Positions 6,414 through 13,937 of a stretch of DNA of 35,731 bases are shown here, piece after piece; position 1 is the stretch's first letter, and the number at the start of each line of letters is the position of its first letter. The stretch comes from Rubrobacter sp. GTDB taxonomy: Bacteria; Actinomycetota; Rubrobacteria; Rubrobacterales; Rubrobacteraceae. Where the stretch lies: contig DASTKM010000327.1 in NCBI GenBank assembly GCA_035715885.1, positions 1 through 35,731 on the forward strand, given 5' to 3'. The position numbers were made by a program, and so were the translations under genes. Below the pieces are notes generated by a model, which had not been told where the DNA came from, ran no database searches, and saw nothing but the letters and a program-made list of their open reading frames with translations.

Positions 6414-6481
6414 ACTAGCCGTTCTTCCGGGCGAAAACTAGCCGTACGGGTGATGCCCGTCTTCCGGAGCAGGGATAGAGT
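6414..6481 (+). promoter_or_regulatory. Putative LuxR/NarL-type operator array and activated promoter of the protease operon
   Basis: ACTAGCCGT repeated at 6414-6422 and 6437-6445 (23-bp period); full site AAACTAGCCGTACGGGTGATG at 6435-6455; candidate -10 TAGAGT at 6476-6481. Confidence 0.65.
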
Positions 6482-6514
6482 ATCCGTGTACACCAACAGG
6501 ATCAGGAGAGAACC

Positions 6515-7417
6515 ATGGAGCACACGGATACTTTGGCCGCCCTGTCGGACGGCATGGCAGATGCGGTAGAGAGAGTGGCGACGTCGGTTGTGCGGGTGAA
6601 CGGACGGAGGCGTCGTTCTGGGAGCGGCGTGGTCTTTGCGCAGAACAAGGTGCTGACGGCGAGCCACGTGCTCGAGCGCGAGGAAGACCTCTCGGTAGAG
6701 ACCGTCGGCGGAAGAACCCTGACGGCGCGGTTCGCGGGGAGGGACCACTCCACGGACCTGGCGGTGCTGGACGTGGAGGGCCTTGACGTCGACCCCGCGG
6801 CGCCAGCGGAAGGAGAAGCCAGGGTCGGCCAGATCTCGCTGGCCGTGGGCAGCCACTCCCGCGGCGAAGGGCCGAGGGCCACCCTGGGGGTGGTTAGCGC
6901 CGTCGGAGGCCCTGTGCGCACCAGGCGGGGACCGAGGCTAGAACGTTACATACAGACCGACGCGACACCTTACCCCGGTTTCTCGGGAGGGCCACTCATC
7001 GACGTGCGGGGGAACGTACTGGGCATCCTGGTCTCGGGCTGGGGACGTGGCGCGGCGTTCGCCATACCTGCCGACCTGGCCTGGCGTACCGCGGGGACGC
7101 TCTCGGAGCGGGGCTCCGTCAAGCGCGGATACCTCGGCATCCTGAGCCAGCCGGTGCGCCTCCCCGACGGACAGCGGCTCGGCCTCTCGCAAAGGGGCGG
7201 ATTGCTGGTCGTAGGCGTGGAGGACGGCAGTCCCGCGGGGCGTGGCGGCCTCATCGTAGGCGACATCCTGGCGACGCTGGACGGACAGCCCGTCGAGGAC
7301 ACCGACGACCTGCTCGTGCTGCTGGCCGGAGACAGGGTCGGCCGTCCTGTACCCGTCGGGGTCGTGCGCGGCGGCGAGCTCGCGGAGATCGAGATCACCG
7401 TGGGCGAGCGCGGTTAG
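6515..7417 (+). CDS. S1C (HtrA/DegP-like) trypsin-fold serine protease with one PDZ domain, no signal peptide
   Basis: GSGVV, TASHV (His), TDLAVL (Asp), YPGFSGGPL (Ser), RGYLGI PDZ start, GSPAGRGGLIVGDI; AGGAG RBS. Confidence 0.9.
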   Translation: MEHTDTLAALSDGMADAVERVATSVVRVNGRRRRSGSGVVFAQNKVLTASHVLEREEDLSVETVGGRTLTARFAGRDHSTDLAVLDVEGLDVDPAAPAEGEARVGQISLAVGSHSRGEGPRATLGVVSAVGGPVRTRRGPRLERYIQTDATPYPGFSGGPLIDVRGNVLGILVSGWGRGAAFAIPADLAWRTAGTLSERGSVKRGYLGILSQPVRLPDGQRLGLSQRGGLLVVGVEDGSPAGRGGLIVGDILATLDGQPVEDTDDLLVLLAGDRVGRPVPVGVVRGGELAEIEITVGERG

Positions 7418-7428
7418 GAGTTCGGGAG

Positions 7429-8313
7429 ATGGCCGAATTGTCCTCAGACTCCTCCGCCGTCCGGATGATAGAGGACGTACAGAGGAGCGTCGTACAGGTA
7501 CGAAGTAGCGGCCGGGGTATCGGCGCCGGTGTGATCTGGCCAGGCGACGGCCTCGTCCTGACGAACCATCATGTGATCTCAGGACGACGCAGGAGAGGCA
7601 ACATCAGGGTGGCTCTCCACGACGGCCGGACGCTCGACGCCGATGTAGTAAAGAGCGGCCGGAGGTTGGACCTCGCGCTGCTCAGGTTAGAGGGCGACCA
7701 CGGAGACCTGCCGCCTGCCCCCGTCGGGGACTCTGACGCCCTGCGCGTCGGCGAACTGGTCTACGCTATCGGGCATCCCTGGGGCCGGGTGGGGGCCGTG
7801 AGCGCCGGCATCGTTGGCGGAGTCGGCGAAGTTCGCGGGCAAGGCCGGAGTTCCTCCACGCGCTACGTACGGTCGGACGTTGCCCTCGCGCCGGGAAATT
7901 CGGGCGGACCGCTCCTGAACGCAAGGGGTGAGGTCGTCGCCATCAACGCTATGATATTCGGCCTTATGGCGCTCTCTATCCCAAGCAACGCGGCGCAGGC
8001 CTGGGTCGCCGGAGAACGCCGTCCGAGGCTCGGTATCGGGGTCTTGCCCGTCGAGGTGCCCGTATCTCTGCGCCGGGAAGCCGGACCTGCCGGGCTCGTG
8101 ATCGCTGGCGTCGAGACAGGTGGCGCTGCCGACAGGGCCGGCCTGCTGGTCGGCGATGTCTTGCTCGCCATCGCCGGGAAGCCGCTCGGGGAGGCAGGGA
8201 CCTTGTTGGAGACCGTGGCGCACGCAGGTGATGTTGTCTCCTTGCGGGTCATGCGCGGCGGTAAAATCATGGTCATGGAAGTGCGTCTGGAAGAGTCGGG
8301 GCGCGCCGCATGA
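7429..8313 (+). CDS. Second S1C serine protease with PDZ domain, no signal peptide
   Basis: GAGVIW, LTNHHV, DLALL, IGHPWG, PGNSGGPL, RPRLGI, AGLLVGDV. Confidence 0.9.
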   Translation: MAELSSDSSAVRMIEDVQRSVVQVRSSGRGIGAGVIWPGDGLVLTNHHVISGRRRRGNIRVALHDGRTLDADVVKSGRRLDLALLRLEGDHGDLPPAPVGDSDALRVGELVYAIGHPWGRVGAVSAGIVGGVGEVRGQGRSSSTRYVRSDVALAPGNSGGPLLNARGEVVAINAMIFGLMALSIPSNAAQAWVAGERRPRLGIGVLPVEVPVSLRREAGPAGLVIAGVETGGAADRAGLLVGDVLLAIAGKPLGEAGTLLETVAHAGDVVSLRVMRGGKIMVMEVRLEESGRAA

Positions 8314-11967: not shown

Positions 11968-12032
11968 TAGGACACCTACGGTCTCATCGCTCCGCTGTTG
12001 TGAAATGCGCTGAGGTGAGATGGTTTCGCGGG

Positions 12033-12677
12033 TTAGGGGGCCTCCACGAGCCCGCGGCGGACGGCGATCCTGGCCGCCTCGGTACGGTTCTTGGCTTCGA
12101 GCTTGGCGAGGATGGAGCCGACGTGGAACTTGACCGTCCGTTCCGAGATAAAGAGTCGCTCGGCGATCTCGGCGTTCTTCAGGCCGCGGGCGAGGAGCGC
12201 GAGAACCTCGAGTTCCCTGGATGTGAGGCGGCGGTTCGAAGGGACGTTCTCCTCACCCTCTATACGCTCCAGCAGCCTGTCTGCGACGGCAGGTTCGAGG
12301 AGGGAACCTCCGGCCTGGACGGTGCGGATGGCGCCGAAGATCTCCTTTCGGGAAGCGCCCTTGAGCAGGTAACCGCGGGCACCCGCACGCAAAGAGCCGA
12401 GTATTCGAGCGTCCGTGTCGTAGGCCGTGAAGACGACGGTACGTGCGCGAGAGCCAGCGTCGCGGAGCCTCTCCAGGGCCTCCACGCCGTCGGTCCCAGG
12501 CATCTCAAGATCCATAAGTATCACATCAGGGTCCAGGATCGCTGCCAGCCTTACGACTTCTTCCCCGTCTGCGGCCTCGCCCACCACCTCGAAGTCAGGT
12601 TGGGTGCCGAGCACGGCGACGAGGCCCTCGCGCAGCATAGGATGGTCGTCGGCGACGAGGAGCCTCACCTTATCCAC
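12033..12677 (-). CDS. NarL/FixJ-family response regulator
   Basis: [24 protein letters not shown], Lux[13 protein letters not shown]; likely GTG start at 12677 overlapping the kinase stop. Confidence 0.94.
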
Positions 12678-13860
12678 TCTGCAGCCCTTCGAGCGGAACG
12701 GTAACATCGATGCGCGTACCCTCGCCGGGGCCGCTCTCCGTCTCCAGAGAGCCGCCGAGCATCTCGACCCTCTCCCTCATGCCGACGATGCCATGCCGAT
12801 CATCCCCGACGCTGGAAGGGTCGAAACCGTGGCCGTCGTCACTTACGATGAGTTGCACTGTCTCCAGTGTGGCCACTAGCCTGACCGTTACGCGGCTTGC
12901 GCCGGCGTGGCTGGCGATGTTGGTCAGAGCTTCCTGGCAGACGCGGTAGAGGGCGGCCTCGACCCGCGGCGGGAGCGGGCGACTGCCGTTCACAGCCCTG
13001 AATCTCGTGGCCACGTCCGTCTCTGCTTCCCAGCGGTCGACGAGAGTCTTTAGCGCCTCGGGGAGGGAGCGGCCTTCGAGTGGGGCGGCGCGGAGGTCGA
13101 GTACCGAGCGCCGGGCCTCATCAAGGTTGGAACGGGTGAGTGAGAGGGCGCGGCGCAGCGCTTCGCGGGCGCGCTCCGCGCCGGACTCGTCGTCGAGCAA
13201 GGCTTCGGCCGACTCGAGCTGGAGTCCCGTGGCAGTAAGCCCCTGAGCGAGGGTGTCGTGGATCTCACGCGCCAGGCGGTTGCGCTCCTCGACGGCGCCC
13301 AGCCTGGCACTGCGGTCGAAGAGGCTGGCCCGTTCGACGGCGATAGCCAACAGGTCGCCTATGGTGGAGAGGAGCTGCAGGTCTTCTGGAGAGAGGCCTC
13401 GCCACTGGGGGCTCGCGACGTTCATTACGCCAAGCTTCTTCTCCCCGGCGTAGAGGGGGATACTGGCGTGGTAACGTAGACCGCCGGTGCCGTCGACCAG
13501 GCCATCAAGACGGCTGCAAGTGAGGACGTTGACGTTGGCAGCGCCTTCCAGGTCGCCCCTCTTGTAAGTGTCCAGGCAATAGCAGTAGCCTGAGCCGTCC
13601 ATGCGGCTCGGGTCGTCCGCGAGGGCAGGAGGGAGGTTGCGGGCCGCGGCCAGGTAGGGCTCGGGAGAAGAGTCGTCTATGAGCCAGATCCAGGCTGTAC
13701 GCAATCCCAGTAGCTCGGCCACCTGCGACAGCGTGAACCCGAGGGCCTCGCCAAGCTCGACAGAGCGGTTGAGCTCGCGGGCGATCTCGTTGAGCACCGA
13801 GAGCTCGTGGTTGCGCCGCTCCAGGTCTCTGGTCTCTCGCACCTCAGAAGCATCGGGCAT
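12670..13860 (-). CDS. Soluble GAF-domain sensor histidine kinase (HisKA_3), AirS/YhcY-like Cys motif
   Basis: H-box [18 protein letters not shown]-box [11 protein letters not shown]1 [21 protein letters not shown] with CYC-x19-CSRL; no transmembrane segment; GGAGG RBS. Confidence 0.92.
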
Positions 13861-13916
13861 CGCGTCCGTACCTCCTCTCGCGAGAGTTTATCAGCGGGAT
13901 ACGACACCAGGGCCGG

Positions 13917-13937
13917 AAACTAGCCGTTTGGGTGATG
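13917..13937. promoter_or_regulatory. Second copy of the 21-bp operator motif, upstream of the histidine kinase
   Basis: AAACTAGCCGTTTGGGTGATG, 19/21 identical to 6435-6455. Confidence 0.7.

Follow-up and report, generated by a model that had tools for sequence, protein, structure and literature searches.

Do two adjacent gene sets of a soil actinobacterium, one encoding proteases and the other a sensor kinase with its putative target enzymes, work as one stress circuit or as two? The question is raised by contig DASTKM010000327.1 of Rubrobacter sp. (contig C327 of genome G000 in our numbering), whose 35,731 nucleotides we refer to as the window; the genome measures 2.6 Mb and is 85% complete. 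On the plus strand, the window carries two HtrA-family (S1C) proteases, S1C-a (6515..7417) and S1C-b (7429..8313), followed by a pseudo-receiver regulator (pRR, 8310..8936) with a LuxR/NarL helix-turn-helix (HTH). On the minus strand lie a cytoplasmic GAF-HisKA_3-HATPase kinase (12670..13860), a canonical NarL-family response regulator (RR, 12033..12707), a classical SDR (11118..11846) and a paralog of QueA (9927..11102). The original prediction, made from the letters of the sequence, had joined both sets into one cytoplasmic stress and redox circuit through a shared operator. All seven genes were confirmed with their domains (open reading frame (ORF) calls, Pfam and NCBIfam). We consider it probable that the locus consists of two stress modules that can exist apart, with regulators that are sisters and operators that are related yet distinct: module A, the kinase block, and module B, the protease operon.

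The protease promoter motif and the sdr operator

The link between the two sets was a motif found at 6435-6455 and 13917-13937. The two copies are indeed identical at 19 of 21 positions, a match obtained in 0 of 100 shuffles, and they are the only sites with two mismatches or fewer in this 2.6 Mb, 85%-complete genome, so that a chance resemblance was rejected. Before S1C-a, the motif is the second of two tandem sites on the plus strand (site 1, 16 bp at 6415..6430; site 2, 6435..6455) and stands 20 bp ahead of a predicted -10 box, TAGAGT (6476..6481, +), whose position is conserved across Rubrobacteraceae and Chloroflexota. This S1C-type tandem architecture was present in 69 of 93 distinct S1C-a upstream regions from these two groups (a set that includes the unpublished genome G260; shuffled mean 0.04), as counted with patterns derived from the very same sequences.

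The second copy tells a different story from the one first proposed. Because both copies lie on the plus strand, it is reversed relative to the kinase operon. Among 28 informative Rubrobacteraceae kinase loci, a copy lies near the kinase in seven, 57-1639 bp away, and is missing from 21. In these seven it always points away from the kinase and is always followed by a -10 box (TAGAGT/TACAGT), behind which lie genes for LtrA (3), an ABM monooxygenase (2) or a haem peroxidase (2; assigned by Pfam in L056 and by likeness in L128). Two of the relatives, L035 and L047, align with the window as far as the last base of the motif, after which the window has no -10 box and no divergent gene, and the 3' end of dedA follows instead. 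From these alignments, the copy at 13917..13937 (+) is likely a relic, left from the promoter of a gene under pRR control that the lineage has lost (ltrA-like in the closest layouts). The kinase-regulator pair has a predicted extended -10 of its own (TG-n-TAAACT, 13885..13890, −), kept in most relatives without the motif. The kinase-motif-dedA junction is no assembly artefact, because contigs from 3 of 4 independent runs match it with 0-2 differences. At its second copy, the operator that was said to serve both operons is thus part of a divergent gene's promoter in relatives, and 21 of 28 kinase loci lack it; we do not find the same site oriented to each operon and kept at both promoters, as a shared-operator regulon would have it. 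Most likely, the motif is a feature of the protease set alone. In five genomes, every S1C-type site found falls inside this island, and relaxed genome scans (21 S1C-type and 5 sdr-type matches) held no further site with the full architecture when inspected by eye.

The sdr gene has a promoter and an operator of its own (11877..11944, −), so that the kinase, RR, SDR and QueA-like genes, all real, do not form the one promoter unit that had been assumed. It consists of a tandem CTGTAC-type site (site 1, 11944-11929; site 2, ~11920-11905) at activator distance from a predicted -10, TACATT (11882-11877). Its geometry is S1C-type, but its half-sites read CTGTAC/CCGTCC. The sdr operator was found in 34 of 37 Rubrobacteraceae stretches (4 of which repeat a genome), in 13 of 13 Chloroflexota stretches examined and in 0 of 7 other actinobacterial stretches, and it tracks with the kinase and regulator; the tandem CTAGCC-type site stays with S1C-a and pRR after kinase loss. 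A fixed-width position weight matrix for the sdr promoter overfitted close relatives (17/50) and was dropped for a flexible pattern. In several relatives (L037:12102-12317, L111:3151-3429, L040, L054, L057 and L059), sdr is separated from its operator by a conserved ORF of ~70-90 amino acids with no Pfam match (start MYDW/MYD).

As had been noticed, the two regulators share near-identical recognition helices, ISEHTVKFH in pRR and ISERTVKFH in RR. TVKFH is not generic in this genome, where only these 2 of the 14 NarL-type HTHs found carry it (the helix region was unclear in 3 of the 14). Across homologues the H/R difference is nearly fixed, with SEHTVKFH in pRR and mostly [S/T]ERTVKFH in RR. 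Both HTHs group together, but the branch that sets them apart is weak (support 60 over 62 columns, in a quick tree, as were all our trees). The receivers are distinct: RR has the acidic pocket DD, the phospho-Asp and the conserved Lys of a phosphorylatable NarL protein, whereas the pRR receiver has no Pfam REC match, its acidic pocket DD is changed to A-P-T and its Lys is lost.

Co-occurrence and dissociation of the two modules

We collected 80 S1C-a loci by a scan with a six-sequence alignment, which biases the set to Rubrobacteraceae and Chloroflexota; the best 120 matches listed in two homologue searches were close relatives only. Of 16 same-genus stretches, 13 have the two modules side by side and three stop where the contig does; several further Rubrobacteraceae show the adjacency too. 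Outside the family the picture changes. Among 57 Chloroflexota-type S1C-a loci (31 with at least 7 kb downstream), S1C-b was present in 51 and pRR in 47, a kinase orthologue in one and the QueA paralog in none. The predicted co-occurrence of the two operons therefore stands as adjacency in Rubrobacteraceae and as an excess of genomes with both kinase and S1C-a (see below), and fails for QueA-like as a neighbour of S1C-a in Chloroflexota-type loci. S1C-b is accessory, because it is missing in some loci: in eight (L096, L097, L098, L130, L139, L142, L149 and L156) pRR directly follows S1C-a, so the core of module B is one protease plus the regulator.

Critically, each module occurs without the other. 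In G065 and G095, both of them single-contig genomes, S1C-a, pRR and the motif persist with no kinase orthologue, and kinase or RR remnants lie beside S1C. Conversely, G080, G163 and G200 keep the kinase, RR, SDR and QueA-like genes with no pRR or S1C-a orthologue, and G080 retains the sdr operator. For a wider view, an even draw of 121 Chloroflexota genomes was scored (kinship and genome size uncontrolled; 7 GAF hits at E >1e-40 not counted). The kinase GAF was found in 17 of 23 genomes with QueA-like vs 4 of 98 others, and S1C-a was only weakly associated with QueA-like (12/23 vs 30/98, p 0.09). Of the 42 genomes with S1C-a, 26 show neither kinase nor QueA-like, and five with kinase and QueA-like show no S1C-a at E 1e-30. 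When 44 genomes were chosen by S1C-a, again including G260, the kinase was present in 17 of 17 with QueA-like, and nine had the kinase only; a phylum tally of 47/201 includes the unpublished G144. In 33 QueA-like carriers outside the family, S1C-a gave no match better than E 1e-37, and a plasmid search gave no S1C-a match at E 1e-30. Altogether, the cytoplasmic location of the proteins and the redox character of the kinase block survive from the proposed circuit, and its obligatory unity does not, since each module is found alone with its operator kept.

Several observations weigh against this reading. In the 121 Chloroflexota genomes, S1C-a is more frequent with the kinase GAF than without it (15/21 vs 27/100, p 2e-4, kinship again uncontrolled), and in one Chloroflexales locus, L178, the kinase and S1C-a are divergent neighbours. 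Both operators are alike in geometry and in the 3' half of site 1; three loci (L059, L060 and L131) were missed by the strict sdr-operator pattern, and the circularity given above applies to the motif patterns in general. The quasi-palindromic second motif copy of the window, L035 and L047 lies ~30 bp from the kinase -10, on its upstream side, and might work both ways. The LI[S/T]L C-terminus of pRR, which enters the mechanism proposed below, may be common in NarL proteins. Cross-regulation between the modules is thus possible in view of the similar operators, the grouping of the HTHs, the excess of genomes with both kinase and S1C-a, and L178.

Taken further, the same observations would fit one integrated circuit, in which phospho-RR alone or an RR-pRR heterodimer, after the logic of RcsB-RcsA, governs the two operons, with feedback from the proteases through degradation of pRR. 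The confinement of TVKFH to these two regulators, the conserved adjacency in Rubrobacteraceae, the remnants beside S1C in G065 and G095, and the restriction of S1C-type sites to the island in five genomes all speak for it. We nevertheless find it rather unlikely: no S1C-type copy faces the kinase, the modules dissociate in both directions with their operators retained, and to these come the 26 S1C-a genomes that show neither kinase nor QueA-like and the five with the reverse content. At the other extreme, the adjacency could be the historical accident of one transferred Rubrobacteraceae island, with a protease module unlinked to redox stress. Rubrobacteraceae QueA-like sequences do group with those of Chloroflexota, in whose genomes both modules are scattered, and the island accepts varied cargo; yet in four loci a second S1C-type site drives a haem-peroxidase or ABM gene beside the kinase, and the excess of genomes with both kinase and S1C-a makes mere accident unlikely as well. 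Our preferred reading remains that of two modules able to exist apart, whose regulators are sisters and whose operators are related.

The GAF kinase and the SDR-QueA-paralog pair

What, then, would module A sense and do? In the GAF domain of the kinase, C93, C95, C115 and H131 are invariant in 32 of 32 rows (C-x-C-x19-C plus His). A GAF kinase of B. thuringiensis shares 36% identity across the GAF and has C-x-C-x17-C and the His at the aligned positions, which places the domain among homologues of the cysteine-cluster kinases of Bacillota, by way of this protein and not AirS itself. The architecture, a cytoplasmic GAF with HisKA_3 and HATPase and no transmembrane segment, is that of AirS/YhcY; a fold search with the whole kinase matched mainly kinase cores. 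According to the accessible parts of the literature, AirS binds a [2Fe-2S] cluster through C-X7-C-X-C-X17-C (PMC4601167; PMC8774646) and is >40% identical to B. subtilis YhcY (PMC3511567), and NreB gives a precedent for three-cysteine [2Fe-2S] sensing (PMC13478379). The window kinase departs from the AirS motif, with the first cysteine missing and a spacing of x19, not x17, which counts against a simple equation of the two. We regard the kinase as a likely Fe-S redox sensor on the strength of this conservation. Four Chloroflexota homologues (L227-L230) have an extra upstream Cys and a shorter spacing, nearer the four-cysteine AirS pattern, and weaker Cys-GAF matches in frames of ~600-650 amino acids, possibly double-GAF kinases like the Bacillus one, occur in the Chloroflexota genomes G348, G366, G302, G278, G375, G339 and G330.

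The enzymes downstream form a tight pair. The SDR has the classical TGxxxGxG and NNA motifs and the N-S-Y-K tetrad (N116/S142/Y155/K159), and in 56 of 61 loci its gene immediately precedes that of the QueA paralog, the misses being four contig ends and one insertion. The QueA paralog (PF02547) has the QueA fold (pLDDT 89.6) and is not a canonical QueA. It scores 172.9 bits against the NF001140 cut-off of 324 and 145.4 against the TIGR00113 cut-off of 267.45, and it forms a clade separate from 12 canonical sequences with support 100. The conserved QueA motifs PPY, AAPTAGLHF, NFHLP and RF.SYGD are altered by invariant replacements (E212, M213, G325, H333, W371, H372 and E373; 42 paralog vs 12 canonical rows, with L062 and L050 dropped because the match ran past a stop). 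Nor is it the real QueA of this genome, where a canonical queA-tgt lies on another contig (C270) with a QueA that passes the cut-offs. TGT was found in 13 of 44 carrier genomes and was not seen in 31. That the paralog is a stress-induced second QueA still modifying tRNA or another RNA base, with SDR as accessory reductase, is quite improbable given these scores, swaps and missing TGTs and the separate canonical copy, even though QueA structures are its only fold matches at E < 1e-3, ~46 positions are common to both (including YQ, S210, GTT, R287, E290, H327-P329 and FGD) and 7 of 7 family-level Rubrobacteraceae tested have TGT.

The same pair lies behind unrelated sensors elsewhere. Ahead of it in 44 actinobacterial loci we found a divergent SoxR gene with a dyad box in 10 and the box alone in four more, a DosS/DosT-like GAF kinase in nine and a Cys-GAF kinase in seven. 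The SoxR of L064 passes TIGR01950, and the kinase of L050, the one of the nine DosS/DosT-like that was tested, matches DosT/DevS GAF structures at E 5e-29. Together with the invariant Cys/His set of the GAF, this recurrence supports the redox character first ascribed to the kinase block. A divergent clade of the SDR/QueA pair (L082, L083 and L085-L088) has a TTGACA promoter upstream of sdr, no SoxR box and no adjacent kinase. The variable cargo of the island includes genes for glyoxalase/VOC, DoxX, luciferase-domain, Fe/Mn SOD and haem peroxidase proteins.

From these sequences we infer the following mechanism. In module A, the kinase and RR probably activate sdr-queA-like: the GAF would bind an Fe-S cluster whose oxidation state tunes the kinase, and phospho-RR would bind the CTGTAC-type site and so induce the pair. 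The SDR would act as a reductase on a carbonyl or quinone, with NADPH as the likely cofactor by the usual SDR rules, and the QueA paralog would use S-adenosylmethionine (SAM) and most likely move its ribosyl part to a non-tRNA acceptor, for example the SDR product; that the acceptor is a small molecule is a guess. The outcome would be that redox-active small molecules are neutralised. In module B, pRR, which should not be phosphorylatable, probably activates the operon that encodes it along with two HtrA proteases, both predicted to be cytoplasmic, and these would restrain pRR, whose hydrophobic C-terminus may serve as a PDZ ligand, as in DegS. If pRR is so restrained, expression would rise as damaged proteins titrate the proteases away. 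A bolder version is possible but doubtful: the SDR and QueA paralog would be an undescribed tRNA-independent SAM ribosyl-transfer pathway of redox defence, recruited separately by SoxR, a DosS-like haem GAF kinase and the three-Cys/His GAF kinase, whose regulator, in Rubrobacteraceae and some Chloroflexota, cross-talks via sister HTHs and hybrid operators with a self-limiting cytoplasmic HtrA module.

Surroundings of the locus, known systems and significance

The two gene sets are real and are not directly convergent, as had been thought, because a 251-amino-acid ORF intervenes (9136..9891, +; likely start 9169), a predicted lipoprotein with the lipobox LFVGC. It has no Pfam family and a weak SnoaL/NTF2-like lead at a score of 0.89; it adjoins the pRR/protease operon in Rubrobacteraceae loci only and is split in L043. 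Before it lies a dispersed REP-like repeat (8940..8998), outside the system, with at least 49 matches in its own genome, which draws in unrelated RNA contigs. Metatranscriptome contigs span 21-27 of 30 bins; they are small-share and of mixed strains, so they do not prove transcription. Upstream, an IlvD/Edd dehydratase gene (4521-6242, −) exceeds the L-arabinonate dehydratase cut-off and is divergent from S1C-a in only some relatives. On the other side, a DedA/VTT membrane protein gene (13966-14631, −) lies upstream of the kinase in most Rubrobacteraceae, and the dedA-kinase gap is an insertion hotspot. An ordinary cobalamin riboswitch (RF00174; 14708-14874, +), the sole match of the Rfam scan, precedes a long cbtA/cobQ/cobN/cbi/cobT cobalamin synthesis operon (14900-33366).

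How does the locus compare with known systems? Both S1C proteins resemble HtrA/DegP/DegS in their trypsin-like domain, PDZ and His-Asp-Ser triad (H51/D81/S157 in S1C-a, present in 97-100 of 101 homologues; H48 and S158 invariant in S1C-b). They differ in lacking an export signal or membrane anchor, as judged by hydropathy only, in being paired, in their co-transcribed regulator and conserved upstream operator, and in scoring far below all NCBIfam HtrA cut-offs. The prediction that none of the seven proteins has a signal peptide or transmembrane segment agrees with Kyte-Doolittle hydropathy, the only measure used, whose maximal 19-residue means (0.97-1.65) are all internal. As a pseudo-receiver LuxR regulator, pRR recalls RcsA, the unstable regulator degraded by Lon. 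Module A is like AirSR (YhcSR) of S. aureus and YhcYZ of B. subtilis in its cytoplasmic kinase, N-terminal C-x-C...C cluster and NarL-type partner, and unlike them in lacking the first cysteine, in the x19 spacing of most homologues and in its putative targets, an SDR and a QueA paralog. QueA, the tRNA preQ1(34) SAM ribosyltransferase-isomerase (PDB 1vky, 1wdi, 1yy3), shares fold and residues with the paralog, which is set apart by its clade, remodelled motifs, obligate-looking SDR partner and the frequent lack of TGT. In SoxR regulons of other actinobacteria the same pair follows SoxR; here its sensor is a Cys-GAF kinase. SCO1801-1804 of Streptomyces coelicolor are presumably the same block, judging from their numbering.

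In the accessible text of the respective papers, QueA transfers and isomerises the ribose of SAM (PMC1282579), SCO1801/1802 are an unnamed NarL pair (PMC9739842), and the paper on the six-gene SoxR regulon of S. coelicolor does not mention SCO1803/1804 (PMC4146615). We found no paper on the paralog pair, the protease/pseudo-regulator operon or the locus in a search outside which fell most subscription papers and all supplements. New here are the three unrelated redox-sensor types ahead of the SDR-QueA-paralog pair and the conserved protease/pseudo-regulator operon with its sister operator.

These findings bear first on annotation: the paralog is routinely labelled as the QueA of the queuosine pathway, as the available text does for SCO1804 (PMC4932002), though most tested carriers have no detected TGT. 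Three redox-sensor types ahead of the same two genes point to an undescribed SAM chemistry linked with redox stress and indicate the conditions to test, and the kinase offers a candidate three-Cys/His Fe-S GAF sensor outside Bacillota. Specificity can be tested directly with these sister regulators, which have H or R at a single position of the helix, and the two operators predicted for them. Most worth testing is the chemistry of the SDR and QueA paralog under three kinds of redox sensor, and then the cytoplasmic HtrA/pseudo-regulator loop.

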